Shown here: in pieces, positions 2,690 through 62,000 of the stretch
Numbering within the stretch: the stretch's first letter is position 1
Layout: the number at the start of each line of letters is the position of its first letter
Source of the DNA: Cyanidioschyzon merolae
Taxonomy: Eukaryota
DNA: 64,000 nucleotides
NCBI GenBank assembly: GCA_000091205.1
Contig: AP006496.2
Direction: 5' to 3' (one strand)
Notes under the pieces: generated by a model
Told to the model about the DNA's origin: nothing
Databases searched by the model: none
Seen by the model: the letters and a program-made list of their open reading frames with translations, nothing else
Translations under genes and position numbers: made by a program

Positions 2690-5150
2690 ACGTCTCCAAC
2701 TGACGTGCCGACGCCTCCGCGTCGATTTGGACCGGCCACCCACTACTGCTTTCAACTTCTTCTCATATAGTTCCACTTTGAGCGGTTATCCAACAAAGCC
2801 CTCTCGTGTCAACTCCGGGCGTCTTCGTTCCACCAGCGCATATCGCCTTAGATAGATAGCGGCGTCAAAGTCTCGGTTCACGAATTCCATCCGTTTCTTG
2901 CCATTGATTGCATACGCCAGTGCAAGCAATCCACGAACTTTTGCCCTCCTTTCCATTTGCTCCTCCGTCAGCGCTCGGTACTTTTTTATATTCTCAGGGC
3001 TCCGCTGACACTTTTCCATCTCCACTCTCTGAAGTGCACACCCCGGTTCGTGGTGTGTATACATTGTTCGGAACTCGTCTACAGGCATCGTAACAATACG
3101 CCGTGCGCACTCCTTGCACGCTCTCGTTGTTGGAGCTGGCGTAGTTCCTTTTTTGGACGCCCAGCGCCCTGCCGCATACGCTCCTACGAGCCTCTGACTC
3201 GCGTCCTATTTGAGGGCGCTCAACTCATTGAAAACGTTCGCGAATGCCCGCTGCCTCCCACAGTATAGATTCATTCGCAAACAATCACACCGGGGCTTGG
3301 TATACTCCTCCCACAGCGCATCCCAATGGGCAACATGAACTTCCATGAATTTCCGAAAAGCTCGAAAGTCCGCTCCCCGGCTCATGACCTCGCTCAAGGC
3401 TTCCAGGTGATCCTTCATTCCTGAATTCCAAGTCTCGATTTTCTTCCTTTTATCATTGTACCGGATTCGCGGTAGTATCTCGCTCGCGAGAATCTCAAGA
3501 GACGCATGTCTTTCTTACGTAAGTTACCGTCAGTACCGTCTTCCGCACGTCTGGGTGCAGCAATGGTGATGATATTCGTATTGCCAGGGTCCGCGCCAAC
3601 GACAAAGTCGTTATCCTGCACTTTCTGCGTGGCAGGATCCGCCTCCTTCTTTTCTTTCTCCTTCGTCATGTCAACGACAAGGTCGTTATCCTCCACCTCC
3701 TGCGTCGCAAGACCCGCCTCCTTCTTTTCTTCATGCTTCGTCGTGCCAACGACAAGGTCGTCATCCTGCATTTTCTGTGTCAAAGGATCCGCCTCCTTCT
3801 CATCTTCATCCTTCGCCACGTCAACGACAAAGTCGTTATCCTCCACCTCCTGCATCGCAGGATCCGACTCCTCCTTTTCTCCATCCTTCGTCACGGGCGC
3901 AGCCGAGGGCGGAACTGGCCGATCTTTCTTCAACCGCCGATAGTGTACACACAAGGCTACTCCATCGGTTTCGATCAACCCAGTGAATACCGTTTGCTTG
4001 CTCACTCTCAGACGTTTGAAATCGAAGATATTCTTCCAGTGGGTCTCCCGGTTTTCGCCGGAGAACTCCTCCCTGCTAACATCGAACTCGGGACTGATCT
4101 CTTTCATGCGGCGTCAAGGACTCTGGAGTCGATACTCACAAAATGTGACTTGAGGTTGCACACTGGAACGCCGTTGAAGCGCTTCCCCATTAGGACAGCC
4201 TTCCGTCTCTCCCACTCTTCATTTTTTCGCCTCTCAGCTTCATCTCCGCCTTGCGTTCGAGTTCTAGATCCAAAAACAAGAAATAGCGCAGAATGTGGCG
4301 ATACCATCTTTCCTTATCTTTTTTCAACTCTGATATCTTTTCTATTGGGTTCGCCAACCCCAGAACCGCACGGCGCTCTTGAATAGCCGCGCGGATTATA
4401 GAATCTTCATTCGTGCTCTCTTTTGACACCTTCTTGTCAACGAATTCGACCTCATTTTCACGCTTGCAATCGTTCGTGATGCCACTGATAATCACCCATT
4501 TTCCTTTGCGAGACAGGCCCGTGTAGAGCGCAAACACGGCGCGTATCATAAAACGTTCCAGGGTCATTGTAGAATGGTTCTTCAGATTCTTGAGGTATTT
4601 CATCGCTCCGTGTGTGTAAATATCCCGGTCACCCTTGTATCGAGTACCGTTGAAGCTCTAGAAGGGGTATGTTTTTGTGGAGGGCATGCACTAGCTCATT
4701 TTCCCGCCGCGCTTCCCCTGTACAAAGCGTCAGGCGTCGAATAAAGGTCATGTGGAAAAACCAGTCCGGAACCTCGCCTATTTTGATGTCCGTAACGTCA
4801 TCGTACATCTCCCTCGCCGCATGCATCAGTTCTAAAAAAGCCTTACGAACAGTCCTGGATTACAATTCGACACTGTTTCTGATGGCCTCTTGCAACTTTT
4901 GCCTGCACGGATCCTTGATGTGGCGTAGAAAACAGGCTTTCATCATCCTCTCATCTTACTGGTGTCTCACTTCTAGCTCCTTCTCGCCATGCCATGCCGT
5001 ACTCGTGCATGGAACAAGGCCCCCAGCGATTGTAGACGCTCCGAAAGCAGCATCGCGTGTTTCTAAGCATGTCAAGTTATGGCCTGGATCGCGTTTCCCA
5101 GCAACGGCGAGATGCGCGTTTTGTCCGGTTGTTGCCAGATCTCCAGGCGC
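2690..5150 (-). mobile_element. Fanzor/TnpB-like element copy F1 (degenerate; ORF broken into at least 5 pieces by frameshifts)
   Basis: Minus-strand ORF pieces 2786..3088 (RuvC-III NRDFDAAIY, RGLLAL), 3206..3418, 3415..4107 (Ruv[19 protein letters not shown] preceded by 4 x 25-aa acidic repeats), 4190..4603 and 4629..4826 (N-terminal domain) are collinear with the 750-aa consensus from copies F3/F5. The 3' noncoding tail is truncated relative to other copies. The 5' UTR motif ggatcgcgtttccc..gatctcc lies at 5085-5150. Confidence 0.7.
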
Positions 5151-5383
5151 CAAGAACAAGACACTTCGACGGACAGCGCATCGCAACGACGATTCCGCGC
5201 TCGATGCATCAACGGCGACGAGAACAGCAGCTGCGGCGGCGGCGGAGGCGGCGCGACGGCGACACAGCGCGATCGGCTCAGATGGTTAATACGAGCTGCA
5301 GGATCAATTCTGACAAGTTGAAGGGAACACTCTCTATCACCAATCACAGAGGCAAAACCCATAACAAGATAAAGTCTTAGTCA

Positions 5384-6304
5384 ATGCAATATATATTGAA
5401 AGCACTCCTGTGCATACTCACGGTTATTGCCGTCGTAAGCAGTTGCAGCAACGGATTTCTGATCCCTCGGGCGGCCAGAGACGCAGCGGTGCGGGAGGAC
5501 GGCGCACCACGGCAAGCTGCTTTCGCTGGATATCGCTGGCTCCCCGAAGAGGAGCACAGTCTTCAGCACCTGGTGGAACGTGGACAGGTCTATGTCACGC
5601 AGTCGAAACCCCAAGCCACAAAGACTGTCGAGCCTTTGGTAACACCGAAGGCCACCGCGCTAGCAATAGCTACAAAAAAGGCAACGAAGAAACCAGAAAA
5701 AGTGCAGAAGGTCAAGAAAACAGTCGTCGTGACAGCTCCCCCGAAAGTCATTGTCAAGCCGACCGAGGTCGTCGTGACAGTTACAGCGGTTGCTACGGTC
5801 ACGAAGACACCGACGCCGACTCCCGTGCATGTCACAGTGACGGCTCTCGCAACTGAGGCTGTTACGGTGACCGCGTCCGTAGCAGTCGCAGCAGTATCAG
5901 TGACGCAAACACCCATACCGCAAAAAGTTATCTGCCGTTTTTGGATGAAAAATTGTAATATTCAGGAAATCAATCGGCAGATATGCTTCACGGGCGAGAA
6001 CATTGACCAGTTTACGTGTGAACAGATTGGTTGCTGCTGGCAACCTATCAAGTCGCAGAAGGCGCCCACGTGCTATCGAGCGATCTGGGCTCCGGTCTGC
6101 AATCTCCAATGTAACTTTCAGGCCTATCTTACCGGCGGCCAGGGCGTCTCTGAGACGCCGCTCGTTAAAGCAACGAGCGCGAAGACGGACTCCACGAGCG
6201 ATGCGCCGTCTGGCAGCTCGAATACAACCCAGACCAGCCAGTTGAGCAGTGGGAACGTGTTTTCTGGACTGCAGAATGCACTCAGCGGTCTTCCATCGTC
6301 ATAG
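5384..6304 (+). CDS. secreted Thr/Val/Lys-rich mucin-like protein with C-terminal trefoil (P-type)-like cysteine domain
   Basis: N-terminal signal peptide MQYILKALLCILTVIAVVSSCS. Low-complexity TVTAVATVTKTPTPTP repeats. C-terminal CRFWMKNCNIQEINRQICFTGENIDQFTCEQIGCCWQP matches the trefoil pattern C-x-R-x2-C-(G/F)-x-G-x-(I/T)-x2-Q-C-x3-GCC(W/F)(D/Q). Confidence 0.55.
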   Translation: MQYILKALLCILTVIAVVSSCSNGFLIPRAARDAAVREDGAPRQAAFAGYRWLPEEEHSLQHLVERGQVYVTQSKPQATKTVEPLVTPKATALAIATKKATKKPEKVQKVKKTVVVTAPPKVIVKPTEVVVTVTAVATVTKTPTPTPVHVTVTALATEAVTVTASVAVAAVSVTQTPIPQKVICRFWMKNCNIQEINRQICFTGENIDQFTCEQIGCCWQPIKSQKAPTCYRAIWAPVCNLQCNFQAYLTGGQGVSETPLVKATSAKTDSTSDAPSGSSNTTQTSQLSSGNVFSGLQNALSGLPSS

Positions 6305-6921
6305 AGCATGTGAGGTGGAGCGCCGCCTGCTCGATGGATAGATCAGTGCACACAAGGCAATAGCGGGTAGGGATCCACAGGAGGCGACGGCTGGGCGCCA
6401 CTTGCGGTGTGTTACCCCGGGCACCAGCAGATTGGGTAGTGACCTTTCCGTAAAACCAGCGTTTCGGAACAATCCAACCGACGCATTGGCATAATCTTTG
6501 GCTTTAGGACGTCTCGAATGAGGTTTAAATTTGTGTTTAGCAGTACCTTGGTACGAAATAAGCATGCATCCTCCGCGGACGAGTGCTCTCGTTCACGACT
6601 AGCTTGTTCGTTGAGTGGTATGGACGCATTTTTCGTCCAACTTTATAACTTTGCCTGCATTGCTCTTGAACCTGTCCTGCCTATTGAACTTCATGAAAGC
6701 AAGTTGCGTTACGAGCACAGCAACGCGGCGCTCGCACTGGCCCCGGTTCAGCGTTGCCGCTGGCAATAGAGCCGCACCATTGCGGGCAGGGTACGCGGCG
6801 CTGCGGCCCGCGTCACGATACCCACCGTTCTCCTCCGAAACGAAACACCGTCCAGGGACAGTACACGACGCTTCACGAACGTCTCCGCGAAAAGCGTCCC
6901 TGTGTGTGCAATCTTTCGACG

Positions 6922-8382
6922 ATGAGTGCTCAGATCCTTGCCCGAGTTGCTCGATCGGTGCATGTGCTATCGAAATCAGGTCAATGGTGGTACCTCGAAG
7001 CCCTCGTACCGCAGCGTCACTTTCGGAGGTGCTTTGCTGCAGCGAGCGCAGAGCTTCCGCCTCACATCAAGCTCCGTATGCCGGCTCTATCACCGACGAT
7101 GAAAGAGGGAAACCTGGTAAACTGGGTGAAAAAGGAGGGCGAACAGGTCTCGGCGGGCGACGTTCTTGCCGAAATTGAAACGGACAAGGCTACAGTGGAG
7201 TTTGAGTCTCAGGACGAAGGCATTCTGGCCAAGATTTTGGTGCCTGCTGGAACACAGAACGTTCCAGTGGGAACTCTTATTGCACTGCTGGCGGAAGAAG
7301 AAGCCGACGTTGCAAAACTTAGGGAAGCGCCTATTGAACCTGGAGAGAGCGAAGCGGCTTCTGTGAAGAAGCTGGAAACGCCGGCGCCGGAACAGCAGCC
7401 GGCTGAGGAAACCCCCCGAGCACCCGCAGAGGCGCGTACGGTTACCGCTCACGGGGGTGGCCCAGCTAAGCCTCGCACTGAGGCATCCAGAAACGAGACA
7501 TCGAGTGCTCCCAGTCGAGCCACGCCTGAGCCAGACTCGCGTCGTGCGCAGGTAGACGCGAGTCGGCATGCCGCGGATTCGACGGCGGCTCAGCGGCTCA
7601 AGGCTTCACCGTATGCACGGAAGCTTGCAGAGGAAAGCGGTGTTGATCTGTCCAGGGTGCAGGGATCGGGGCCCGACGGCCGCATTGTGGCTGCTGACCT
7701 CGAAGCCGCGCTCCGAACAGCAACACGACAAACCGTGCAGCAGCTACCCCTGGATCTGTTCGTTGAATCGAAGCGTACGATTCCGCACTACCAACTCGTG
7801 TCTGAAGTTCGACTGGACAGCGCGCAAGCTTGGCTGACTGCGCTCCAGAAGAAGCAAGAGCGTTCCACGGACGATGCTCTCGAACTGGAGGATTTCCTTG
7901 TCAAAGCACTGGCGACGGCTGCGCAACGTGTACCGTCGGTGAATGCGTCCTTTATGGGATCGAGCATCCGCGAGTATGCAAATGTCAATGTGCTGGTGCT
8001 CCCGAGCGACCCGAATTCGATGTACCGCGTGATACCAAATGCGCAAGCGATCGGTCTACGGGAAATTCACCGCATACGAACTGGTGGAGGTTCGGAACAA
8101 ACCCGCGAGAATGATGCCACCGATCTGGGCACCATCGGGTTTTCGCTGAATACCCACGTCTTACAAGAGATGGCAATCATTATCCCCCCGCATGCTGCGA
8201 TAGTGGTCTTCGGGAAACCAGATCAACGTGTGATCGCCGGCTCAAATGGAACGTTCGAAATCGGGACCTTCGCCCTGGTGACGGCTTCTTTTGATCACCG
8301 CGTTGTCGATGGTGCTGTTGGCGCTCAGTTCATGGCGCATCTCGCGGAGTATACGCGAGATCCCCTGTCGATGCTCGAGTAG
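6922..8382 (+). CDS. DLAT: dihydrolipoamide acetyltransferase, E2 of the pyruvate dehydrogenase complex (mitochondrial)
   Basis: Starting from the internal ATG at 6922: a presequence-like MSAQILARVARSVHVLSK, then the lipoyl domain MPALSPTMKEGNLVNWVKKEGEQVSAGDVLAEIETDKATVEFESQDEGILAKILV, an Ala/Pro/Glu linker, the E3-binding domain KASPYARKLAEESGVDLSRVQGSGPDGRIVAADLE, and a catalytic domain ending FDHRVVDGAVGAQFMAHLAEYTRDP. The ORF track extends 56 codons upstream (6754), which is probably untranslated. Confidence 0.8.
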   Translation: MSAQILARVARSVHVLSKSGQWWYLEALVPQRHFRRCFAAASAELPPHIKLRMPALSPTMKEGNLVNWVKKEGEQVSAGDVLAEIETDKATVEFESQDEGILAKILVPAGTQNVPVGTLIALLAEEEADVAKLREAPIEPGESEAASVKKLETPAPEQQPAEETPRAPAEARTVTAHGGGPAKPRTEASRNETSSAPSRATPEPDSRRAQVDASRHAADSTAAQRLKASPYARKLAEESGVDLSRVQGSGPDGRIVAADLEAALRTATRQTVQQLPLDLFVESKRTIPHYQLVSEVRLDSAQAWLTALQKKQERSTDDALELEDFLVKALATAAQRVPSVNASFMGSSIREYANVNVLVLPSDPNSMYRVIPNAQAIGLREIHRIRTGGGSEQTRENDATDLGTIGFSLNTHVLQEMAIIIPPHAAIVVFGKPDQRVIAGSNGTFEIGTFALVTASFDHRVVDGAVGAQFMAHLAEYTRDPLSMLE

Positions 8383-13698: not shown

Positions 13699-13920
13699 AC
13701 ACGAGCTAGAGAAACGTGATCCGCCAAGCGTGCAAAGTTAATCGACGCCACGAGCCTGCGCAGCGACGTTGCAAATAAGGCTTTTCGACTAAAAACAAAA
13801 ACAGGAAACGTATTATACAAGATATAGAAAAACAGAAGCCGACGGAGGGTGCACCGTCGACGTACCGAGCTCAAGATTCCAGCGCACGATCGCATCTCGC
13901 GAATCTTGTCACCACCGCCT

Positions 13921-15850
13921 ATCTAAAGACGCGTCGCCGGCGGTGCGCAGTACTGGTGGCGAACGCGCCTTAGACAAATCGTCTCCAACTGACGTGCCGA
14001 CGCCTCCGCGTCTATTTGGACCGGCCACCCACTACTGCTTTCAACTTCTTCTCATATAGTTCCACTTTGAGCGGTTATCCAACAAAGCCCTCTCGTGTCA
14101 ACTCCGGGCGTCTTCGTTCCACCAGCGCATATCGCCTTAGATAGATAGCGGCGTCAAAGTCTCGGTTCACGAATTCCATCCGTCTCTTGCCATTGATTGT
14201 ATACGCCAGTGCAAGCAATCCACGAACTTTTGCCCTCCTTTCCATTTGCTCCTCCGTCAGCGCTCGGTACTTTTTTATATTCTCAGGGCTCCGCTGACAC
14301 TTTTCCATCTCCACTCTCTGAAGTGCACACCCCGGTTCGTGGTGTGTATACATTGTTCGGAACTCGTCTACAGGCATCGTAACAATACGCCGTGCGCACT
14401 CCTTGCACGCTCTCTTTGTTGGAGATGGCGTCATTCCTTTTTTGGACGCCAAGCGCCCTGCCGCATACGCTCCTACGAGCCTCTGACTCGCGTCCTATTT
14501 GAGGGCGCTCAACTCATTGAAAACGTTCGCGAATGCCCGCTGCCTCCCACAGTATAGATTCATTCGCAAACAATCACACCGGGGCTTGGTATACTCCTCC
14601 CACAGCGCATCCCAATGGGCAACATGAACTTCCATGAATTTCCGAAAAGCTCGAAAGTCCGCTCCCCGGCTCATGACCTCGCTCAAGGCTTCCAGGTGAT
14701 CTTTCATTCCTGAATTCCAAGTCTCGATTTTCTTCCTTTTATCATTATACCGGATTCGCGGTAGTATCTCGCTCTCGAGAATCTCAAGAGACGCATGTCT
14801 TTCTTACGTAAGTTACCGTCAGTACCGTCTTCCGCACGTCTGGGTGCAGCAATGGTGATGATCTTCGTATTGCCAGGGTCCGCGCCAACGACAAAGTCGT
14901 TATCCTGCACTTTCTGCGTGGCAGGATCCGCCTCCTTCTTTTCTTCCTCCTTCGTCATGTCAACGACAAGGTCGTTATCCTCCACCTCCTGCGTCGCAAG
15001 ACCCGCCTCCTTCTCATCTTCCTGCTTCGACGCGCCATCGACAAGGTCGTTATGCTGCACTTTCTGTTCTGTGTGGCAGGATCCTCCTCAATGTTTTCTT
15101 CATCCTTCGTCACGGACGCAGCCGAGGGATGGACTGGCCGATCTTTCTTCAACCGCCGATAGTGTATACACAAGGCTACTCCATCGGTTTCGATCAACCC
15201 AGTGAATACCGTTTGCTTGCTCACTCTCAGACGTTTGGAATCGAAGATATTCTTCCAGTGGGTCTCCAGGTTTTCGCCGGTGAAGTCCTCCCTGCTAACA
15301 TCGAACTCGGGACTGATCTCTTTCATGCGGCGTCAAGGACTCTGGAGTCGATACTCACAAAATGTGACTTGAGGTTGCACATTGGAACGCCGTTGAAGCG
15401 CTTCCCCATTAGGAAATCCTTCCGTCTCTCCCACTCTTCATTTGCCTCTTCACTCAGCTTCATTTCTGCCTTGCGTTCGAGCTCTCGGTCCAGAAACGCG
15501 AGGTACCGCAGGACGAGGCGATAGTATCTTTCCTTATCTTCTTTCAACTCTGATATCTTGTCTGTCGAATCCGCCAACCCCAGAACCGCAGGGCGCTCTT
15601 GAATAGCCGCGCGGATTACAGAATCTTCATTCGTGCTCTCGTTTGACGACCTCTTGTCAAAGAATTCAATCTTATCTTCATGCTTACGATGGTTCGTGAT
15701 GCCGTTGATAATCGCCCATAGCCACTTGCAAGAGATACCCTGGGTACAGTGCAAACACGGCACGTATCATAAAACGCTCCAGGTTCACGATCATATGATT
15801 CTTCAGATTCGTGATGTGCGTACTCGGCCTGTCACAATTTACTCTGGCAT
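13921..15850 (-). mobile_element. Fanzor/TnpB-like element copy F2 (5'-truncated, multiple frameshifts)
   Basis: Minus-strand ORF pieces 14075..14452 (CxxC-like region, RGLLAL, NRDFDAAIY), 14495..14707, 14704..15060 ([17 protein letters not shown] with 3 acidic repeats), 14955..15326 and 15323..15763 are collinear with the F3/F5 protein. The conserved 3' tail is at 13921-14074. The N-terminal ~250 codons are missing, and the copy abuts a partial X/R2 repeat at ~15850. Confidence 0.7.
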
Positions 15851-16240
15851 TAAGAGCGGGCGGCCTGCGTCATGGCGTCGCCCTGGTCCTAACAGACTCC
15901 TAGCACGTCGCTTCACGCTGTTGCAGGCAGCAGATCTGGCTGCCCAGTTGTCAGGCTCCCAGAATGATTACGTATTCCGACTCCGTATCAGGTGAAACCT
16001 TCCTCGATACGACGCCCTCAGTGGTATCGCAAAGCCGTTCTGTGTCCGTTCAGCATTGGCATCAGCGCTACAGGCGCTTTCGCTGGAGCTCAAATCAGAC
16101 ACTCGGGGCACAACAGGACGTACAAAACTACCGGTGTATCCAAAATGATGCATTAGTAATGGGCTTTGATGGTAGATGCGTCATGATGGACGCTTTTTCG
16201 ACTACCAATATCCATCTCGCCGGCTGAGATCCCCGGTCAA
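15850..16240 (+). repeat. X(partial)+R2 short interspersed repeat, copy A
   Basis: 15911-16240 aligns by eye with 42313-42650, 54114-54448 and the reverse complement of 60600-60835. Shared strings: ctcccagaatga, cgacgccctcagtggta, gcaaagccgttctgt, gatggacgcttt..ccaatatccatc. Confidence 0.6.
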
Positions 16241-16409
16241 TGTAAACGAATTTCGCCATCGAAAGAGAATCGATCGCAGCGCCCTGCGGATGCCGCCCCC
16301 CTCCCCTGCGAAATAACATCCAGACAAACATTACGTCTTTTCCCTTCAAAGGGAACACTGGTCCAAGATGCCGACCCTATGCTGATCGCAGAGCAAGCGT
16401 CGAAGGTCT

Positions 16410-20016: not shown

Positions 20017-20244
20017 GTGCTGCACATTTGCGCGGCGCCGAAGGATCACCTGCAAACACGCTCGTTTCGTCAAGGCGTTCAGCATCTAGGTACTGCCGCA
20101 GCGACAACGTCATACGAACAGGTGTTTGGTGTGCTGCACATTTGCGCGGCGCCGAAGGATCACCTGCAAACACGCTCGTTTCGTCAAGGCGTTCAGCATC
20201 TAGGTACTGCCGCAGCGACAACGTCATACGAACAGGTGTTTGGT
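20017..20244. repeat. tandem direct duplication, 2 x 114 bp, preceded by a (CAG/AAG)n microsatellite at ~19975-20010
   Basis: tgctgcacatttgcgcggcgccgaaggatcacctgcaaacacgctcgtttcgtcaaggcgttcagcatctaggtactgccgcagcgacaacgtcatacgaacaggtgtttggt occurs twice back to back. The ORF-track peptide VLHICAAPKDHLQTRSFRQGVQHLGTAAATTSYEQVFG is duplicated accordingly. Confidence 0.85.
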
Positions 20245-25873: not shown

Positions 25874-25907
25874 ACGCGTGCCCGCTTGAGACGACCCGCA
25901 CCATCAA

Positions 25908-26000
25908 CGCCGCTCGAAAGTCGAACGGCGCCAACGGTGTACAGTAGTGGCGGCAACCGCGCCCTAGACGAGACGTCTCCAACGGGCGTGCAGACGCCTC
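25908..26000 (-). ncRNA. candidate omega-RNA (fRNA) scaffold region of copy F3: the conserved 3' end of the ORF plus the noncoding tail
   Basis: Sense sequence after the stop, ...ctagggcgcggttgccgccactactgtacaccgttggcgccgttcgactttcgagcggcg, is conserved with copies F2, F4 and F5 and then diverges exactly at the element end. No structure or expression evidence is available. Confidence 0.25.
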
Positions 26001-28318: not shown

Positions 28319-28572
28319 AGGTTTCCTTTTTTTTTAGTTTTTTGAAAAAGAACGCTCTTTGAACCCTTATGTAATATACTGCGAACAAACACTTGACTAG
28401 ACTTATTTGAGGGTGAAACACAAATGAACTCAAAAACTGTACTTTGCTACGACTTTAACGCAAATAAAACTTGTACAGTAGAGCAGTGCGCTCCTGATCA
28501 GGATCGCGTTTCCCTTCAATGGCGACATGCGCGTCGTGTCAGGTGACTGCCTGATCTCCCGGGTGCGCTCAC

Positions 28573-29150
28573 CGAGCGCGATTTTTAGAATGGACAAAAC
28601 GTTTCCTTGTGCCAGCGTTCTCCGATTGTGCGCATTTTTCTTTTCTTTCTCTCTTTTTGTGTTTTTTTCAGTGCGCGGTGAGGTATCCATCAACCCCCTA
28701 CCTCCATGTTACATTACCGATACTTCATCGCGGATATTCTGGTCGTTTCATACGTCCTATGATGTGTGCCTAGTACCTGCCGTGCCGTACCCGCCTTTGG
28801 ACCTTAACAGCTGGGGCAGATAGTTCATAGAGACAGAACGGCTTTTCCATACCACAGAGGGCGCCGGCTCGAGGCGTGGTTTACCCGACGTAGAATTGGG
28901 TGTCGCCGTCAGTTTGTGCTCAGACAGTCTGCGGATGCAGGTTTGTCTTCGCTGCACGAAACGCTGGAGACACTTGGCTGTTAGGATATATCGTGGGAGC
29001 CGCCTCTCTCTTTCGTGATCATGCATGGAATGCGTTGTTGTCGGTTGGCAATGTGGCTTCGTGCTTGACACCCACCCACCACTGTGGGTAGGCGCAGAAA
29101 GCACTGGGCCCGTGTGCGCATCCGATTCGCTAGACCTTCCGCCTAGAAGG
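28573..29150 (+). repeat. R3 interspersed repeat (~590 bp), copy 1
   Basis: Near-identical by eye to 48990-49575. The first ~150 bp (gccagcgttctccgattgtgcgc..polypyrimidine..cagtgcgcggtgaggtatccatcaaccccctacc) are also at 60420-60600. Confidence 0.7.
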
Positions 29151-40800: not shown

Positions 40801-41399
40801 TGCTTGCCGTTTATGCTAGAAAACTTCCGATTGATCAAACTACGGAAAGCAAAACTGACGATCAGAGCCATCCCGGGCGTCACTGTTTCTCAACAGATCA
40901 ATTGTATGGTCCTGGAAACAGTAGGATAGTCTCAAGAGTCATAATTCACGCACGGCCATCTTCCATGGAGATCGCAATGTCGACGTTCCTCGAACGTCGC
41001 GATCTTCATCAAGCAGAGTGACGTCAGTCTGTTTTTCAGTTGATGCGACATCCTCCGGACGAAAAGGTTGGAGTATACATGAGTATTCGTGGAGCTGGGA
41101 ACCCGTTGTATGTACGATCGAACTCGAAGAGAACGAGGACGTCATCCATTCTTGCTGCAATCGATCCATTTGGCTGTCTCAGATTCGCTTGTGGAGAAGG
41201 CTGAAAGAAAAGCACCTGCTTCGTCTACTACTTGGAAACTTTTCTCCTGACATCTGGTGACGCCATCCTATTGGACAGTGTCGAATTTCGCCATCCGCTT
41301 TCCGTTCGAGCATTTGCCGATTCTATCGGGGAACGAGCTGTCTTTCATTCCTCAGTGTGCTGCGTGGTTCATCCCCATCAGAGGAATGTTTTTGATCAT

Positions 41400-42010
41400 G
41401 AAACGCAGTGATCGCTCCACTGGGTGAATCGCTGAAGCGTTCAGCACACGCTGGCACAACGGAGCACATAAAATCTTCCTTCTGCATGTGCGTCTGTCTC
41501 TGGGAAGGTCAGCACCTAAGGGCATAAACAAGGGCGTTCGTTTGAATACATTAAAAAATCCAGGGAAAGTTATGGACTCGGAAGTCCGAGATGTTTGAGG
41601 CCCGGTGTTGCCAGCTGCCGGATAAAAAACGGAAAGAATCCTTTTCTCGACAAACATCAAGCGAACAAGAGTATGTGACGAAGAAGAAAAAGAAAAGAGG
41701 GGACACAGCACAGCAAAGATGTTTGGCCGACGGGATAGTGACGATCCTGTTATGTCACAGAGGACACGAGTTCGAGGAATCCTTGCTTTGGTGAGTTCCA
41801 CCAGCGGCAATAAACGCATGAAGTTCGTGAACCGAGAATTCAACGTCACCATCAGGATCAGACGATCTGCGGTGCTAAACACGGGGACCGAGGACCCCGG
41901 GCGATTTAACTTCATGGGGCAGCCTCTCAGACTCGACTTGTACCCAGATAATTCGAAATCGATAGCAGACGGCCGGTCCAGGAAAAGCTGGGAGACGTCG
42001 GTGTAAGTTT
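41400..42010 (+). pseudogene. Fanzor/TnpB-like fragment F7 (C-terminal RuvC-III region only, truncated on both sides)
   Basis: ORF 41719..42006 encodes RVRGILALVSSTSGNKRMKFVNREFNVTIRIRR...GQPLRLDLY, a degenerate RGLLAL and NRDxNAAINI region. There is no conserved 3' tail. X/R2 repeat copy B starts at 42030. Confidence 0.5.
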
Positions 42011-42029: not shown

Positions 42030-42650
42030 GAACAGAAACTAACCATTCACTATCAACTCGATAACAATTTCTTCCCTGCTCTACCGTACACGTTTACAAG
42101 GGGAAAAGATTTCCGTATTTTCGAAAGCTTTCCTTCTAAGCGGAAGGTCCCGCGAGCCGGACGAGTCTGATGGGCTCGTGCTCCGTGCACCTCTGAAGTG
42201 CCCGGTGCTATAGTGAGGCCTGAACAGCTCCTCCGCAACGCACTATATTCTGGGACCAGGAGCAGGTAGGATGCATCCAGGTGTCGCCATAATCACAGAG
42301 GTCTCCGGGAATATCGCTTCGCGCTGTCGCAGGAAGTAGGCCTGTCTGCGCAGTTTGCAGACCCCCAGAATGCTGACAAGTCTGAATTCCGTATCGGATG
42401 AACCAAGCATCAAACCGACGCCCTGAGTGGTATGGCAAAGCCGTTCTGTCTCCGTGCAGCATCTGCTTCAACGGCATACGCGCGATTGCGGATGCAGCAA
42501 GACAGGTACCCGGCGCACGATCGAGCGTACATAACGACCGGTACATCCGAGAGGAACTATGGATCAGGGAACTTGCAAGTAGGTTGCAGCATGAAGGATG
42601 CTTTCTCGGTAACCAATATCCATCCCACAATCTGCGATCCATGGTCCAAG
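42030..42650 (+). repeat. X + R2 composite short repeat, copy B
   Basis: 42030-42312 (X: aacagaaactaaccatt...cccgcgagccggacgagt...) matches 53815-54113. 42313-42650 (R2) matches copies A, C and D. Confidence 0.65.
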
Positions 42651-48989: not shown

Positions 48990-49575
48990 TAAATATATCA
49001 TTAGGTATCTATATGCCACCACAGCAGCACGTTCGGATTTTTTCGCTGACAAAACGTTTACTTCGGCCAGCGTTCTCCGATTAAGCGCATTTGTTTCTTA
49101 CTTTTTTTGTGGTTTTTTTCAGTGGGCGGTAAGGTGTCCATCAAACCCCCGACCTCCAAGTTACATTGCCGATACCTCTTCTCGGATATTCCGGTCGTTT
49201 CATACGTCCCATCGGGTGTGCCTAGTGCCTGCCGTTCCGTATCCGCCTTTGGACCTTAAATGCTAGAGCAGATAGTTCATAGAGCTAGAACAGCTTTTCT
49301 ATACCCGAGAGGACGTCGGCTCGAGGCGTGCTTCACCCAACGTAGAATCGGGTCTCGTCGTCAGTTTGTGCTCGGACAGTCTGCGGATGCAGGCTTGCCT
49401 TCGCTGCACGACACGCTGGAGAAACTTGGCTGTTAGGATGAATGCTGGGAGCCGCCTCTCTCCTTCGTGATCATGCATGGAATGCGTTGTTGTCGGTTGG
49501 CAATGCGGGTTTGTGCTTGACACCCACCACAGTGGGTAGGCGCAGAAAGCGCACTGGCCCCGTATGCGTATCCGA
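48990..49575 (+). repeat. R3 interspersed repeat, copy 2 (no adjacent Fanzor gene)
   Basis: Aligns along its full length with 28573-29150. It lies ~280 bp upstream of the start of the minus-strand Dim1-like gene. Confidence 0.7.
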
Positions 49576-49905
49576 TTCGCTGGACCTTGCGCCCAGAAGG
49601 TACCCTTGATGCCGATGCGCGTCGCGCACATTAGCATAAGCGCATAACCTGGACAATCCGACACCATCCACCATGCAAGCTGCGGAAGGCAGTTTGGTGG
49701 CGCCATTCGTGCCAGAGGCGCTGCTGCGCTTTCGGTTGCGCGCGCTGGCCATCGAGGTAGCGCGAATGCTCGCCAAAGTGCGCGCACAGCTCGCGCAACG
49801 GAATCCTGTGTGGGGTGTAGCGAATTCTCCCCCCCAGGTACCGCTACGCTGCTGCACTGAGGTCGACTCCAAAAGGGTGCCTGTTGGAGGCGTGAACCGC
49901 CATCA

Positions 49906-50541: not shown

Positions 50542-51285
50542 TGTCACTTCTTTGCACAGTCACATAAAGGCCGCCAATGGTGCCCCTTCATGTTTATGAT
50601 GTAGAAGGCTTGCTGTGCGCCATGCAGCGCAGGAGGCTGCTTCGTTCCGCTGCGCACTCTGGTGCGTGCTCGCTACCGAACGCTTGCATGCATCTCCATA
50701 GCGGGGCGCAGTCGCACGTCTCCACAGAGCCATTCCGGACATGATCGTCTTGAATGGTTTGTGTGTTGGAATACAACCCGTGGTGAAGCGTGATGCCGGC
50801 GAGGGTGACGCTTACCACGAAAACACCTCCTGCGACCAGTCGTCTTGCGGGCAGCTCCAGCCAGCGCTTTCCTGACAGTAACTGTCTTCCGAGCAAACTC
50901 GCGTACGTCATATAATTCTGCAGACACGTCCCCGTTTCACGGAAGGGAAAATCTCGAGGAGCAAAGCGGAGCCGCCCGCACGCCCACACACACACATCTA
51001 TGATAGGGACGAGAACGGATCACCCAGCACTTGTGTGACGAACAGTGCTCCGTGTCGCGTTCTGTTTCCGTGCACGAAAGGCTTGCTTTCAGCGCTACTT
51101 GTCGTAATTAAGGACCGGCCAGACCGTTGGAGCAGTGTCCGGTGCAGTAGACCGCGTACCTGAAAGCCACAAAAGGCGCACAGGGCAGAGCGCCGTACTG
51201 CGTCCAGCTCGCGAAACCGGTCGCTTCTTTCGGGCGATGGGCGCGGTCGCCTGCTGCTGGTCCGTGGTATCGCCGACACAAGGAG

Positions 51286-51400
51286 CGCCTTAAAAGTCGA
51301 ACGTCGCCGGCGGCCGTGTACAGTAGTGGCGAGAAACCCGCCCTAGATAAAACGTCTTCAGCTGACGTGCAGACGCCTCCCAGCTTTTTTGGACAGGCTA
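51286..51400 (-). ncRNA. candidate omega-RNA scaffold region of copy F4
   Basis: Sense tail after the stop, agacgttttatctagggcgggtttctcgccactactgtacacggccgccggcgacgttcgacttttaaggcg, is conserved with F2, F3 and F5 up to the last base and then diverges. Confidence 0.25.
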
Positions 51401-53790
51401 CCTACTACTGCCTCCAACTTTTTCTCATACAGCTCCACTTTGAATGATTGCGCAACAAAGTTCTCTCGTGTCAACTCTGGAGGTCTTCTTTCCACCACGG
51501 CACATCTCCTTATATTGATAGCGGCGTTAAAGTCACGATTCACAAACTCCATACGTTTCTTGCCATCTTTGTTTGTACACAGTAATGCGAGTAGTCCACG
51601 AGCTTTCGCCCTGCTTTCCATTTGCTCCTCCGTCAACGCTCCGTACTTTTTTACATCCTCAGGGCTTCACTGGTACTTTTCCATCTCCACTCTCTGAAGC
51701 GTACAACCCACTTCATGGTGTGTATACGACGTCCGGAACTCATCTACAGGTATCGTAACGAGATGCCTTTCACACACCTTGTGCGTTCTTGTAGCTGGAG
51801 CTAGCCTAGTCCCTTTTTCCCACGCCTACCGCCCTGCCCAATACGCTTCTACTAGCCTCTGACTGTCGCTCTCCTTCAAGGCGCTCAACTCATTGAAAAA
51901 ACTCGTGAACGCACGCTGCCTCCCACCGTGTAGATTCATACACAACCGAGCCCACCGGGGCTTTGTATACTCCTCCTACAGCGCCTCGCAATGAGCAACA
52001 CGAACTTCCATAAACTCCCGGAAAGCGTGAAAGTCCGCTCCCCGGCCCGTCACCTGGCTGATCGCTTCCAGGTGCTCTTTCAATCCTGCGTTCCACGCCC
52101 CACTTTTCTTCCTTTATTCATTACACTGAATTCTCGGTAATATCTCGTTCTTGAAAGCTTTAAAACACGCATGTGTTTTTGACGTAGGTTGCCGTCGATG
52201 CCATCATCCCCGCAATTGCGTGTTGTGATGGTCATGATATTCGTGTTCCCAGGGCCCGCGCCAACGACAAAGTGGTTCTCATGCACCTCCTGCTTCGTGG
52301 GGCTAGCCTCTTTGTTTTCTTCACGCTTTGCCAGCGACGGCAACGAAGACAGAACTGGACGATCCGCCTTCAAGCGCCGATAATGTACACGCATGGCTAT
52401 CGCATCACTTTCGATCATCCCAGTAAAGTCCTTTTTCTTGCTCGTTCTGAGACGTTTGGAATCGAAGATATTCTTCTTCCAGTACGTCTCCTGGTTTTCA
52501 CCGGTGAACTCCTTGTTGCTTACATCGAACACTGGACAGATCTCCGTAATGATGCCGTAAGGGATTTCGGAGTCGATACTCACAAAATGTGACTTGATGT
52601 TGCACAACGGAACGACGTTGAAGCGCTTCTCCAGAAGCGCAGCTTTCCGTTTCTCCGTCACTGCATTTGCTTCAACACCCTGCTCCATATCGGTCTTGCA
52701 TTTCAGTTGTCGGTTCAGGAATATGGTATAGCGCAAGATGAGGCGATCGTATCTTTCCGAATCTTTTTTCAACTCTGATATCTTTTCTGCTGGACTCGCC
52801 AGCCCCAAGACCACACGATGCTCTTTAATAGCTGCACGGATTACAGAATCCTCATTTGCTCTCCTGCGTGATGTCTTCTCGTGAACAAATTCGATCTACT
52901 GTTCATTCTTACTATCGTTTGTGATGCCATCGATGATGGTCCATATCCCTTTGCGAGAGGGGCCCGGGTAGCGCGTACAGACGGCGCGTATCATGAAACG
53001 TTCCAGGTTCATGGTCAAATAGTTCTTCAGGTTCGTGAGGTGCTTCATAACCCCGACGGTGTAAATACGCGAGTCACCCCTGTCTCGAGTACCGTTGAAG
53101 CGGAATTCGGCGTAATTTTCGTGGAGGGCATGCACCCGCTCATTTCTCCTCGACGTTTCCCCTGTACCAAGCATCAGGTGACGAATAAAGGTTTTGCCGA
53201 AAAATTCTTCCAGAACCTCGACTGTTTTGATGCCCGTTGCGTCGTCGCGCATCTCCTTCACCAAATGCATTATACCTGCAGAAGCCATCATAACACTCAT
53301 GGAGTCTGACTCGATACGGTTTCTGATGGCCTCTCGCAGCTTTCGCCGGGACGGATCCTTGATATGTGCGAGAAGACAGGTTTTCACCACCATCTGGTCG
53401 TACTGTCGTGTTTCGTTCAGCTTCTGACCTCGGGCCTCCCTCTTTTGCTCCATCGTCTTCTCATGTTCCTTTTAGCTCCGCCATGTTTTTCCTTAGTCTC
53501 CGGCAGTCGACGACACCAGATGTCCAGGATCCTCCAGTTTCTTTTCCACAACTTTTTCATTATTTTTGAAGAAGAAGAAGGCTCTTTCAACGCTTCTGAT
53601 ATGAATCGCTAAAATTGATTTGAATACACTAACTTGAGGTTTGAAACACAATTGCATTAAACAACTTTAATTTGTTACGACTTTAACGCAAATACAACTT
53701 GTACGGTAGAACAATAAGAAAACGGATTTTCACAATTTCGCGTTTCCTTTCAACGGCGACACGTGCGTCTTGTCTCGTACGACCTGATCT
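51286..53790 (-). mobile_element. Fanzor/TnpB-like element copy F4 (full length, frameshifted)
   Basis: Minus-strand ORF pieces 51358..51636 (RGLLAL..FVNRDFNAAINIRRCAVVE), 52080..52814 ([14 protein letters not shown] with a single acidic repeat unit) and 52896..53453 (N-terminal domain, starting MEQKREARGQK...). The conserved 3' tail is 51286-51357. The 5' UTR (gactttaacgcaaatacaacttgtac, cgcgtttcctttcaacggcgacacgtgcg...ctgatctccccggcgcgc) ends at ~53790, where repeat X begins. Confidence 0.75.
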
Positions 53791-53814
53791 CCCCGGCGCG
53801 CTAACCGACCGCAG

Positions 53815-54448
53815 CATACAGAGCAAAGAACAGAGACTAACCATTAACTAGCAACGATATACCAATTTATCTTCCCTGCACGATAAACGATAAAAAGGAA
53901 ACACGATTCCCGTTTTGTCGAAAGTTGAATTTCTCGACGGAAAAACCCGCGAGCCAGACGAGTACCCCAGGCACGTGCTTCGTGCTCGCCTCCCAGTGGC
54001 GGGTGCTGCACTGAAATCTGAGCAATTCGTCTGCAGCACTGTTTATTCTGGTACTAGCGGCAGTTAAACTGCATCTGGGCGTCGATCCGGTCGCGGTGGA
54101 GTCCTAGTATAGAGCTTCACGCTATCGCAGGCAGTGTGTCTGTCTGCGGAGCTTGCTGGCTCCCAGAATGATCCTATACTCCAACTCTGTGTCAGGTGGA
54201 GCATTCCTCGATCCGACGCCCTCAGTAGTACGGCAACGCTGCTCTGTATCTGTGATGCATCGGCATCAGCGGATTAGACGCTAAGGCGGGTGCATCAACG
54301 CATGCACCCGGCGAATGACAGGAAGCACGAGACGAGTAGTACATCTGAAAGGAAGTATACGTAATGGAATCTGGAGTTAGAATGCAGCATGATGGACGCT
54401 TTCGCTGAATCCGATACCCATTTATAGCACAATCTGGGATCCATTGTC
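53815..54448 (+). repeat. X + R2 composite repeat, copy C, lying between the head-to-head Fanzor copies F4 and F5
   Basis: 53815-54113 matches 42030-42312. 54114-54448 matches R2 copies A, B and D. Confidence 0.65.
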
Positions 54449-54802
54449 AATATAAGTGTTTTTCCATCGGAAAAATGAAGCGTGTAGCTCTAACGTACAA
54501 ATTGTAACGATGTTCAAGTCGTAGAAAAATACATTGTTTGTCCTCAATCGTGTTTCAACCTTCACTCTAGTGTATTCAAGTGCTTTTTCGTGCGTAATAG
54601 CTGTCCCATCCAAAGTGGTTTCGGTTTTTATATTGAAAAAGGAAAGTTACGGAAGTGGAAGTGTAGGATCCTGGGCGTCAATGTCGCCGGCAGCCCGAAA
54701 AAACGAAGAACAGTGCCAAGTGCAAAGGAACAGGATAAGAAGAAGAAGTAAAAGTGGAAGGCCCTACGTCAAAGGCTACACAAAAGACGACGGTACGACG
54801 AG

Positions 54803-56838
54803 ATGGCGGTGAAAGCCTGTCTTCTTCAACATACCAAGGATCCGTACAGGGAAAACGTTCGAGAGGCAATATGGAACCGTGTCGAGCCGAACTCCAGCGG
54901 TGTTCGTGATGCTTCTCAAGGAATGTTGCATTTCCTAAGAAAATGGTATCATGACGTTACGGACATCAAAACAGTCGATATTCTGGGTGAATTTTTCAAC
55001 AAAACCTTTATTCATCACTTTATGCTTGGCACCGGGGAAACGTCTAGGTGAAATGAGCGAGTTCATGCCCTCCACAAAATTTACGCCGAGTTCCGCTTCG
55101 ACGGTACTCGATACAGGGGGGATTGGGATATTTACATCTACGGGGCGATGAAGTACCTCACCAGTCTAAAGAACCATTTAACAATGAACCTCAAAAGCTT
55201 CATGATACGCTCCATCTTTGCACTCTACCCCGGTCTCACTCGTCAGGGGATATGGGCGATTGTCAATGGCAACACGAACGATCGCAAGCATGAAGATGAG
55301 ATTGAATTCATCGACGAGAAGAAATCACTCAGGAGCATGAATGAGGATTCCGTCATCCGAGCGGCTATACAAGAGCATCGTACGGTACTGGGGTTGGCGA
55401 ACCGAGCAGCAAAGATATCAGAGTTGAAAAAAGATAACGAAAGATACTATCGCCTCGTCCTGCGTTACTTTGTGTTTCTGGGCCGTGAGCTCGAACGCAA
55501 GGCAGAGATGAAGCTGAGTGAGGAAAAAATGAAGAGCGGGGGAAACGAAAGGCTGCGCTTCTGGGTAAGCGCTTCAACGTCGTTCCGTTGTCCAACATCA
55601 AGTCACGTTTTGTGACTATCGATTCCAGAATCCTTTACGGCATCATGAAAGACTTCAGCCCCGAGTTTAATGTCAGCAGGAAGGAGAGTACCGGTGAAAA
55701 CCGGGAGACGTACTGGAAGAATATGTTTGATTTCACACGTCTGAAAGTGGGCAAACAAAAGGTATTCACAGGGGTGATCGAAACCGATGGAGTAGCCATG
55801 TGTATTCACTATCGGCGCTTGAAGGCGGATCGTCCAGTTCCGTCTTCGATAGTGTCCGTGACGAAGCATGAAGATGAGAAGGAGGCGGATTGTGCCACAC
55901 AGAAAGTGCAGGATAACAACTTTGTCGTTGGCGCGGACCCTGGGATTACGAATATCGTAACCATCGCTGCTCCCAAGCGTGCGGAAGATGGTAACGACGG
56001 TAACACACGTCAGAAAGGCATGCGTCTGTTGAGGTTCTCGAGAGCGAGATACCACCGAGGATCCGGCGTAATGAATGCAAGGAAGAAAATCATTACATGG
56101 AATTCAGGAATGAAAGAGCACCTGGAAGCTTTGAGCGAGGTGACGAGCCGAGGAGCGGACTTTAACGCTTTTCGGGAGATTATGGAAGTTCGCGTTGCTC
56201 ATTGGGATTCGCTGTGGGAGGAGTATACAAAGCCTCGACGGGCTCGTCTGCTTATGAACCTGTATTGTGGGAAGCGGCTTGCATTCGCCAACTTTTTCAG
56301 TCAGTTGAGCGCCTTGAAGGAGGATGAAAGTCAGAGGCTCGTAGTAGCATACCGAGCAGGGCGCTGGGCGTCGAAAAAAGGAACTACGCCAACTCCAACG
56401 ACAAGAACGTACAAGGAGTGCGCACGGCGCTTCGCTACGATACCTGTAGATGAGTTCCGAACATCCTATACAAACCATGAACTGGGGTGCACGCCTCAGA
56501 CGGTCGAGATGGAGAAGTGTCAGCGAAGCCCTGAGGATATACAAAAGTACGGACCGCTGACGGAAGAGCATATGGGAAGGAGGGCGAAAGTTCGAGGGCT
56601 ACTTGCACTAATGAGTACAACCAATGATAGTAAGAAACGTATGGAGTTTGTGAATCATGACTTAAATGCCGCGATCAATATCAAGAGATGTGCGGTGCTG
56701 GAGAAGAGACCTCCAAACTGGACAAGAATGAACTTTATTGGACAACCTCTCAAAGTCAAACTATATGAGAAGAAGTTGGAAGCAGTAGTAGGCGGCCGGT
56801 CCAAGAAAACTGCGAGGCGTCTGTACGTAAGTTGGTGA
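54803..56838 (+). pseudogene. Fanzor1-like TnpB-family RuvC nuclease gene of copy F5
   Basis: RuvC-I is [18 protein letters not shown] (D at 55936-55938). The Cys-containing region is YKECARRFATIPVDEFRTSYTNHELGCTPQTVEMEKCQRSPE. RGLLAL follows. RuvC-III is FVNHDLNAAINIKRCAVLEKR (D at 56659-56661). Confidence 0.7.
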
Positions 56839-56907
56839 TGTCTAGTCTGGGGCGCGGCGATCGCCACTACTGTACCACTGGCGACAGCGTTTTTCTTTTG
56901 AAAGGCG
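56740..56907 (+). ncRNA. candidate omega-RNA scaffold region of copy F5
   Basis: After the stop at 56836-56838: tgtctagtctggggcgcggcgatcgccactactgtaccactggcgacagcgtttttcttttgaaaggcg. This is conserved with the other copies and diverges at 56908. Confidence 0.25.
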
Positions 56908-56944
56908 TTGGTTTCCAGGGGCGCGCGCTACAGCAACGCCTCTG

Positions 56945-60403: not shown

Positions 60404-60419
60404 GTTTCACCAAGACGCG

Positions 60420-60835
60420 CAACGAAAGATGCTGCAAATTTTTTCCCATTGCCAAGACGCGTACCAAGGCCAGCGTCCTCCGATTGTGCGCTTTTGCTTT
60501 TTTCTTTTTCTTTTCATTTTTTTTCAGCGCGCGGTTAAGCATCCATCAAACCCCCTACTTCCAAACTCCGTAACCCATACTACTCCTCGGATACACTGAT
60601 CGCTTCATAGGCTGTATCGTTCGCTGAGCGCATGCCGCAAGCGTCCCTTGTGGAGCTTGTACCGTTGGCACGAATGCATCTCAATGACAGAACGGCTTTG
60701 CCGTACTAATGAGGACGCCGCCTCGGTGCTTGGTTTATCCAACATGGAATCGGGATTCACTATCATTACGAGAGCCTGCAAGCTGCGCAGACAGACCTAC
60801 TGCCTGCAACAGCGCGAAGAGATTTACCAGGATAA
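60420..60835. repeat. R3 5' fragment (plus orientation, 60420-60600) abutting R2 copy D (minus orientation, 60600-60835) in the SppA promoter region
   Basis: 60455-60600 matches the first ~150 bp of R3. The reverse complement of 60600-60835 matches R2 (cttcgcgctgttgcaggcag...ctcgtaatgatag...ggcaaagccgttctgt). Confidence 0.6.
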
Positions 60836-61089
60836 TCCTGCGAACACGGGCGACTCCTAGACGCAGCGCACCAGCTCCTAGTCCCGAACTGAACTGCGTT
60901 GCGGGCGAGCTGCTCAAGTCTCGCCATTGCACCCACCACTTGGTGGAGCATGAAGTTTCAGCGCGGCGGAGTCGTCTGGCTCGCGGGACGCCCCGACTAA
61001 AAGGTGAACTTTCGACCATGCGAAACAATTTTGCCAGCTTCAACACGTACCGTCGAGGCAAATATTCGTATATCGTTGCTAGGTAGCGT

Positions 61090-62000
61090 TCGTTTCCGTG
61101 ATTATTTTCTACAGCGCAGTCGATACGCACACCATCATATTTGGGAGATGACATTGACGGCAGCCTGCGCCACAATGAGATGCGTCTTTTGAAGTTCTCG
61201 AGAGCTGCATATTGCCGACAGTCGGAGATAATGAAGCCCAAGAAATACTGCACCCTGCAACGCTGAACAGAAGGAGTACCTGGACGCGATGAGCAAAGTC
61301 GCGTCGCGCGGAGCGGACTTTCGAGCTTTTCTCGAATTCACGGAAACTCAAGCTGCTCATGCCGAGGAGCTGTGGAAAGAGAGTATCCAAAGCCCCGGTG
61401 GGCTCGTCAGCGCATGAACCTTCGCAGAGGGAAGAAGCGGGTACGCGGCATGTTCATGAATCAGTTGAGCGCCCTCAAGCAGGACAAGAGTCAAAGGCTC
61501 GTAATTGGATACGCAGCAGGGCGCCGGGTGTCCAAAAAGCTAGCGTACCAGCTCCATCGACAAGAGCGCGCAAGGAGTGCACACACCGTTTCATCGCAAT
61601 ACCGACAGATGAGTTCTGAACGTCCTACGTGCACCAGGGGCTGTGGTATACGCTTCTGGAGGTCGAGATGGAAAAGTGCCAGCGGAGGGCTGAGCATATA
61701 CAAAAGTGCGGAGACCTGACGGTGCAGGAAATGGCACGAAGGGCGCGAGTTCGAGTACTCCTCGCTCTAGTGGGTTCAAGCAGCGGCAACAAACACATGC
61801 AGATCGTGAATCGAGACTTTAACGCCGCTTTCAATATCAGGTGATGTGCGGTACTGGAGAAGAGATTCGAGGGGTTGACACGATCCAATTTTGTGCCACA
61901 AACTCTCCGAGTCCAACTGTAAAACGAGAACTTGAAACCAATAACAGGCGGCCGGTCGATAGAGACGGAGCGGCGTCAGCACGTCGGTACATAGGTACCC
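61090..62000 (+). pseudogene. Fanzor/TnpB-like fragment F6 (5'-truncated, degenerate C-terminal half)
   Basis: Plus-strand frames encode ..MRLLKFSRAAY.., ..YPKPRWARQRMNL..GKKRVRGMFMNQLSALKQDKSQRLVIGYAAGRR.., RFIAIPTDEF.., and LLEVEMEKCQRRAEHIQKCGDLTVQEMARRARVRVLLALVGSSSGNKHMQIVNRDFNAAFNIR, the last two being the Cys region and RuvC-III. Confidence 0.6.

Follow-up and report, generated by a model that had tools for sequence, protein, structure and literature searches.

We analyzed a stretch of 64,000 nucleotides (hereafter the window) from chromosome 14 of Cyanidioschyzon merolae 10D (852,727 bp; locus tags such as CMN029C), in which a gene for a TnpB-like nuclease of the Fanzor1 type recurs among host genes. 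The window contains five copies of one element of ~2.5–3.2 kb (F1–F5), a diverged copy (F6), and two older fragments (F7 and F8). These are very probably decayed relics of the Fanzor1 transposon CMe-1A together with older relatives of it. All of them are pseudogenes and inert, and none is able to make the nuclease now. Seven host open reading frames (ORFs), read from the first ATG, are identical to C. merolae 10D proteins in the range BAM81162–BAM81177, and the composition and long ORFs of the window have the profile of an intron-poor eukaryote.

One Fanzor1 family, CMe-1A, was described in C. merolae by Bao & Jurka (2013; Mobile DNA 4:12, PMC3627910), with ~150 copies, each ~80% identical to a consensus of 3169 bp that encodes a protein of 734 amino acids. 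According to that work the family has no terminal inverted repeats (TIRs), its target-site duplications are undetermined, and it is listed as unclassified; its 5' 635 bp match TE-N2_CMe at 95% identity, some copies survive intact elsewhere, and divergence under purifying selection was argued for (PMC3627910). A published consensus that failed to align would have spoken against this identity; it does align to the window copies, at 83–88% identity, and the finding is therefore a re-discovery of CMe-1A, real but already known. The likeness covers the organism, the protein, the TE-N2_CMe module at the 5' end, the missing TIRs, and the ~80% identity to consensus, and there is no essential difference. 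To the published description our analysis adds that the 5' module occurs in both orientations and that other 5' modules exist, that the element probably reaches ~10–15 nt past the published 3' end, and that a 25-amino-acid repeat in the protein varies from 1 to 5 or more copies.

Copies, lesions and 5' modules

A preliminary description of the window, made from the DNA letters without database searches, had listed seven loci encoding collinear pieces of one protein. Self-BLAST and tblastn recovered all seven at essentially the positions given there, and boundaries were refined by alignment to the published CMe-1A consensus and by a model of the 3' tail. F7 turned out to be smaller (41530–41988 rather than 41400–42010), and an eighth copy, F8, had been missed. 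F4 (51275–54469, minus strand) is the sole full-length CMe-1A in the window, aligning to consensus 1–3169 at 83.0% identity. F5 (54479–56918, plus strand; consensus 735–3169, 84.7%) is without consensus 1–734, and F1 (2635–5147, minus strand) matches consensus 671–726 and 1044–3145 at ~86%, with its 3' terminal hairpin cut short. The best-preserved copy is F3 (25897–28590, minus strand), which aligns to consensus 638–3145 at 85–88% and reaches the 3' end. Its coding frame (28318–25964) comprises 785 codons in one frame, interrupted by only two in-frame stops, so the gene has no introns, and where other copies change frame they are genuinely damaged. These amount to five frameshifts and five stops in F1, four frameshifts and three stops in F2, and several of each in F4 and in F5, which holds a 416-amino-acid ORF (55588–56838) covering the C-terminal part that we used for protein tests. 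The preliminary description was right that every window copy carries ORF-breaking lesions.

It had also called F2 and F6 truncated, and here it does not stand. F2 (13905–16261, minus strand, ~86%) has consensus 1–423 joined to 1414–3156, and the diverged F6 (60537–61988, plus strand, ~75%) has consensus 65–666 joined to 2243–3092; both are internal-deletion derivatives that keep both element ends. The published consensus likewise led us to reject a reading of F2, F6, and F7 as 5'-truncated products of a retroposition- or Helitron-like mechanism, which the conserved 3' hairpin and variable 5' modules had suggested. F7 (plus strand) is a Fanzor remnant with a large internal deletion that retains consensus 869–968 and 2849–2959 plus the C-terminal 80 codons, in pieces at 41530–41635 (consensus 869–968) and 41752–41988. 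F8 (38540–39594, minus strand) is strongly decayed and belongs to a divergent lineage (30–40% amino acid identity by tblastn), with N- and C-terminal pieces in collinear order. One pair of copies is linked by more than common descent: F1 at 2683–3820 and F2 at 13972–15114, 11 kb apart, are 96.6% identical over 1.1 kb, the adjoining part being 86% identical, and they have the same frameshifts and stop codons, which points to a copy that was duplicated or converted after it had been inactivated.

The Fanzor unit proper starts at CGCTCGGTGAGCGCACC (28578 in F3, 53812 in F4). What precedes it varies by copy: TE-N2 in the consensus orientation, TE-N2 inverted, or one of at least two other modules, and at least four different 5' modules occur in the metagenome loci that we scanned (79 loci in hot-spring samples; 409 related stretches found). 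The 5' ~635 bp of TE-N2_CMe are present in F4 (53828–54469), F2 (partial), and F6, and are absent or replaced in F1, F3, and F5. Alignment to the consensus places the 53828–54469 module in F4, and its assignment to F5 was accordingly dropped. The 5' terminus of F4 and the truncated 5' end of F5 (54469–54479) face each other head-to-head with 9 bp between them; the 734 bp that F5 lacks were not found on the far side of F4, so there is no simple nested insertion.

Beside the 5' end of F3 lies a repeat module (28593–29152) with a TE-N2-like core, in which consensus 84–271 matches 28697–28889 on the opposite strand, inverted relative to the consensus arrangement. It is 86.5% identical to a solo repeat at 49048–49602, which also has a TE-N2-like segment, the two forming a ~560-bp pair. 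A solo TE-N2_CMe-like module (42030–42646, minus strand; consensus 22–633, 81% identical) abuts the 3' end of F7. TIRs were sought in TE-N2, around F7 and F8, and at the CMe-1A ends, with no convincing result, and at seven full-length junctions a search for target-site duplications gave T-rich flanks only (TTTTT / element / TTTGTT), with no TA.

The protein and its 3' tail

The intact product of this intronless gene is a protein of ~735–785 amino acids with a Lys/Arg-rich N-terminus, and the motifs picked out in the preliminary description (GADPGxTNIxTIA, C-x22-C-x9-C, RGLLAL, and N(R/H)D(L/F)NAAIN) are all present. It is a Fanzor1, that is, a eukaryotic TnpB-type nuclease with one RuvC active site, as had been proposed from the motifs; the identification is based on profile matches, a fold match, and an invariant D-E-D triad. 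An exhaustive HMMER search returned 989 relatives, many of them intact, 600–700 amino acids long, and 33–45% identical. When a 55-sequence family profile was run against PDB sequences with hmmsearch, it had three matches, all Fanzor1 and no others: Parasitella parasitica PpFz1 (9cf0, E = 1.9e-20), Spizellomyces punctatus SpuFz1 (8gkh, E = 1.6e-13), and Guillardia theta GtFz1 (9cer, E = 1.5e-4). An AlphaFold2 model (pLDDT 80, pTM 0.72) led to the same structures, Foldseek placing SpuFz, PpFz, and GtFz first (E = 1e-11 to 1e-7), with all of the top seven matches being Fanzor1 structures, followed by ISDra2 TnpB (2.8e-4) and then Cas12f and other Cas12 proteins.

D117 (in GADPG), E289 (in VDEFRTS), and D358 (in NRDLNAA) are invariant in the alignment of 55 relatives and are predicted to form the catalytic triad, with the relocated Glu typical of Fanzors, which follows an inert Gly or Pro at the canonical RuvC-II site by about 35–45 residues. 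In the profile alignments DPG lies opposite DPG/DPN, DEFRT opposite DEFRTS/DEYKTS, and NRDLNAA opposite NRDQAAV/NRDMLST, and the strand VVAYG pairs with VVMGD. The canonical RuvC-II position is thus held by Gly (AYG), and the functional Glu lies ~35 residues downstream, in VDEFRTS; such a rearranged RuvC-II glutamate site has been described for Fanzors (PMC10530073). CMe-1A therefore resembles SpuFz1 (8GKH), PpFz1 (9CF0), and GtFz1 (9CER) in its DPG, DEFRTS, and NRD motifs, the relocated RuvC-II Glu, the basic N-terminus, and its nature as a eukaryotic nuclear, transposon-borne gene. The differences are an identity of only 14–18% in structural alignment, the apparent loss of the CxxC zinc-ribbon cysteines, a disordered 25-amino-acid tandem repeat before RuvC-I, and the pseudogene state of the window copies. 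With bacterial IS200/IS605 TnpB (ISDra2, 8H1J) and Cas12f the protein has in common the RNase-H-like RuvC fold and the D-E-D triad (fold search E = 3e-4 to 1e-3), but its N-terminal half is much larger, its Glu is relocated, its host is a eukaryote, there is no TnpA, and no sequence-level match was found. The eukaryotic nuclear locus, the missing Pfam match, and the relocated Glu likewise separate it from IS200/IS605 TnpB. By analogy with characterized relatives, the CMe-1A protein would have cleaved double-stranded DNA (dsDNA) under RNA guidance.

The motif of Bao & Jurka has a C4 zinc finger between [TS][TS] and RD (Pfam PF07282); here only C-x22-C-x9-C remains and the family consensus is without the CxxC pairs of SpuFz and PpFz, so that the zinc-ribbon cysteines have apparently been lost. 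Immediately before the RuvC-I strand, a coding minisatellite of 75 bp (25 amino acids), detected with TRF, has three units in F3 (26878–27100, minus strand), four in F1 (3597–3893), 2.4 in F2 (14883–15060), and one each in F4 and F5. Metagenome relatives have up to five or more units and the published CMe-1A protein one, and the model shows no order there, with pLDDT < 50 for residues 83–101.

Conservation among 53 copies ends 75–90 nt past the stop codon, exactly at the element boundary. The best example of this tail is that of F3 (25897–25991, minus strand), which consists of a small GGCG...CGCC hairpin, a ACUACUGUA linker, and a terminal hairpin CACCGUUGGCGCCGUUCGA-CUU-UCGAGCGGCGUUGAUGGUG with a 19-bp stem; the linker ACTACTGTA is conserved. 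Covariance model R1 matches equivalent tails at 56823–56918 (plus strand) and at 51275–51370, 13905–13997, and 2635–2708 (all minus strand), and Rfam at gathering thresholds has no match in the window. Two sub-types of the terminal hairpin, TCG...CGA and TTT...AAA, both keep their pairing through a G:C to U:A change. On the raw tail alignment 81.5% of cells are paired under a structure named by hand, against 35–54% for slid controls. On a covariance-model alignment of 66 distinct copies, which itself leans towards structure, five of five measures beat nearly all shuffles (2–13 of 500). Owing to G:U pairs, the sense strand gives a more stable fold than its complement in 53 of the 66 copies (p = 4.6e-8; mean z-score –1.3). 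By analogy with characterized systems, the ~90-nt tail is a plausible candidate for an omega-RNA scaffold, a right-end cis element, or both. Only 30 bp separate the 3' end of F3 from the ATG of a downstream host gene on the same strand (25867–20561), and the orthologous metagenome locus L041 has this junction too; were a guide RNA to be made from the F3 tail, its guide portion would be the 5' leader of this gene.

Transposase remnants, age and history

The preliminary description had stated that no transposase gene is present in the window. This is correct for an intact gene, but decayed DDE_3 remnants lie upstream of F7 and F8. Using as tblastn queries the transposases that neighbour related intact Fanzors, we found a Tc1/mariner DDE_3 pseudogene (40654–41460, plus strand) directly upstream of F7 and on the same strand. 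The match (E = 7e-10 against the window, 3.9e-18 against the sub-region) is collinear over amino acids 10–273, passes through three frames, contains stops, and keeps traces of the motifs SVDATS, LLDSV, and IPIRGMF; its translation matches Pfam DDE_3 at E = 1.8e-5 and 25.1 bits, just under the curated cut-off of 28.6. A second decayed remnant (39640–40363, minus strand; tblastn E ~5e-8 and 1.5e-5) stands in the same relation to F8. No transposase remnant is associated with the CMe-1A copies F1–F6. Further decayed Tc1/mariner DDE_3 remnants, none intact, occur near CMe-1A copies on metagenome contigs from related algae, in L016 at 6101–6933 and at the locus ends of L032, L039, L040, and L046.

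The two closest intact relatives that could be placed in context, P0252 (40% amino acid identity) and P0226 (43%), each lie directly downstream of a transposase with HTH_Tnp_Tc3_2 and DDE_3 domains on the same strand, and L081 has imperfect TIRs of ~31 nt. The transposase-then-Fanzor layout is already known from other Fanzor1 lineages, and Tc1/mariner elements carrying Fanzor1 (PUl-1 and PGv-1, Bao & Jurka, 2013; Fanzor1c, Jiang et al., 2023) are arranged like P0252, P0226, F7, and F8. CMe-1A proper differs from them in having no transposase, no recognisable TIRs, and no TA duplication, and in its T-rich flanks. Given the DDE transposase remnants in front of F7 and F8 and the matching arrangement of the closest intact relatives, the starting point of the lineage was probably a Tc1/mariner-plus-Fanzor composite, from which CMe-1A would descend.

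The amplification, which the preliminary description held to be recent on the impression that the copies are very similar at the DNA level, is not recent as judged from sequence divergence. By self-BLAST, DNA identity between window copies is 75–81%, the 1.1-kb F1/F2 tract excepted; identity to consensus is 82–89%, and dS about 0.4–0.5. In a set of 40 non-redundant copies the medians are 0.16 for dN and 0.40 for dS. Metagenome loci L002 and L003 are orthologous to the F5 locus at 98.8% and L041 to the F3 locus at 98.6%, with the same insertions present; since the F3 and F5 insertions are common to a strain that is ~1.3% diverged, they predate that strain split. A search for empty sites in the metagenome loci gave only orthologous filled sites. 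Median pairwise dN/dS is 0.40 (range 0.32–0.48; 40 copies), compared with 0.75 for the post-mortem F1/F2 pair, which suggests that much of the divergence built up while the protein was under purifying selection. The majority consensus of the copy set is itself a 785-codon ORF with a single stop.

Two other accounts of the multiplicity of copies deserve consideration. One holds that the family amplified recently and may still be active, an intact master copy lying nearby; it could appeal to the density of eight copies in 64 kb, compared with the ~150 in 16.5 Mb reported, to the mere two stop codons of F3, to the intact copies that Bao & Jurka report elsewhere, and to the 96.6% identical stretch of F1 and F2. 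That stretch, however, carries lesions common to both copies, so its likeness stems from duplication or conversion of a dead copy; the other copies are as divergent as described above in both identity and dS, the F3 and F5 insertions are present in a diverged strain, and near-intact copies number only 2 of 79 in the metagenomes, both damaged. We regard recent amplification as very improbable. The other account invokes segmental duplication of this part of the chromosome in place of transposition. The lesions and the tract common to F1 and F2, 11 kb apart, could be cited for it, but in our judgment it has even less to recommend it: similarity breaks off abruptly where the elements end, unrelated host genes flank the copies, copy orientation varies, the 409 related metagenome stretches have different flanks, and F2 and F6 have internal deletions that keep both ends, as is typical of DNA transposons.

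The nature of the 3' tail is less clear-cut. The tail could be a DNA-level cis element, either a right end recognised by a transposase or a terminator, and no omega-RNA scaffold; we consider this a serious alternative, if the less probable one. In its favour, the tail sits exactly at the element boundary, and hairpins that tolerate G:T pairs are also known in strand-specific single-stranded DNA transposition. Third-position diversity is undiminished over the last 60 codons of the ORF, so that no long structured RNA overlapping the ORF is apparent. Several results on the RNA side also count against a scaffold: covariation on the raw alignment is modest, barely above shuffles, RNAalifold finds only a 3-bp helix (three pairs) on the tail alignment, and the tail is no better conserved than synonymous sites (pi 0.21–0.46 vs 0.245 at third codon positions), that is, no more strongly than neutral sites. 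On the other hand, the guide RNA of characterised Fanzor and TnpB systems maps between the 3' end of the ORF and the right end, the folding bias favours the sense strand, and the hairpin is kept across the two tail sub-types through the G:C to U:A change. The cis-element and omega-RNA roles are compatible with each other.

Fanzor1 biochemistry was established in 2023–2024. The history of CMe-1A that best fits these data is that an intact element encoded a single intronless Fanzor1, which, as its homology implies, would have been guided to dsDNA by an omega RNA derived from the element and normally transcribed from its 3' end. The ancestor would have been a Tc1/mariner-plus-Fanzor composite and CMe-1A a later derivative without transposase and with a TE-N2 module at its 5' end. 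The family was active long ago in several sublineages, its protein under purifying selection during the spread. The window copies decayed later, as they acquired stop codons, frameshifts, and internal deletions and as F1/F2 underwent a local duplication or conversion.

This reading of the copies as relics of a Fanzor1 element has to be set against a number of opposing results. Pfam gives nothing significant on the 416-amino-acid F5 ORF, on homologues, or on the rebuilt consensus; PF07282 scores E = 0.07–0.9, below the cut-off (E = 0.9 on the rebuilt consensus), and single-sequence phmmer against PDB had no match. The preliminary description had proposed OrfB profiles among its checks and the lack of a significant profile hit as grounds for giving up the Fanzor identification, so on Pfam alone the identification would have been abandoned; since the profile-to-PDB and fold searches were positive, the Pfam OrfB test is too weak. 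TnpB and Fanzor proteins are expected to have a CxxC...CxxC zinc ribbon, and this clade has only a degenerate form of it. No intact copy occurs among the eight window and 79 metagenome copies, with 2 of the 79 having near-full ORFs. CMe-1A itself is without TIRs or TA duplications, and its link to Tc1/mariner depends on F7 and the relatives.

A bolder proposal joins three claims: that CMe-1A is the transposase-less descendant of a Tc1/mariner-plus-Fanzor1 composite with F7 and F8 as its surviving pseudogene relics, that the ~90-nt tail is the omega-RNA scaffold of a Fanzor1 of an acid hot-spring alga, and that the nearly intact 785-amino-acid consensus could be revived as a heat-tolerant editor without zinc ribbon. 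We think it rather unlikely that all three hold together. The 2013 paper already described the family with its copy number, age, and Fanzor1 character, which leaves the finding with little discovery value. It does have value as a positive control, because a reading of raw sequence recognised a TnpB-like RuvC nuclease family that single-sequence Pfam missed. The transposase remnants beside F7 and F8, together with the intact transposase-Fanzor relatives, give a first clue to the superfamily of an unclassified element. Smaller additions for specialists are the defined 3' hairpin tail, the dN/dS of 0.4, the variable 25-amino-acid repeat beside the active site, and the apparent loss of the zinc ribbon.

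Host genes and minor features

The other large ORFs of the window are ordinary host genes, which encode the CSE1 exportin, Dcc1, the pyruvate dehydrogenase E2 subunit, a phosphate transporter, and SppA, as well as a photolyase-like protein, an Fe/Mn superoxide dismutase, a GNAT acetyltransferase, a gamma-tubulin complex protein, and others. A 1770-amino-acid helicase-like ORF adjoining F3 was considered as a Helitron helicase and rejected: it belongs to the host, occurs in a single copy, and encodes UPF1-like AAA_11/AAA_12 domains but no Rep domain. The density of Fanzor-derived copies in the window is roughly ten-fold above the genome mean implied by the published copy number. The low gene numbers (CMN02x–CMN03x) suggest that the window lies near a chromosome end, and copies may accumulate near the telomere.

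Three further features were recorded. Two tandem copies of a 114-bp unit, 100% identical to each other, occupy 20017–20244, flanked by the superoxide dismutase ORF and by the 3' end of the 1770-amino-acid helicase-like gene; they are unrelated to the Fanzor elements. A (GT)n microsatellite (62340–62365) lies just downstream of F6. Beside F1, a 307-amino-acid ORF (5381–6301) matches the Trefoil (P-type) domain at E = 2.8e-7, which is unusual for a red alga.

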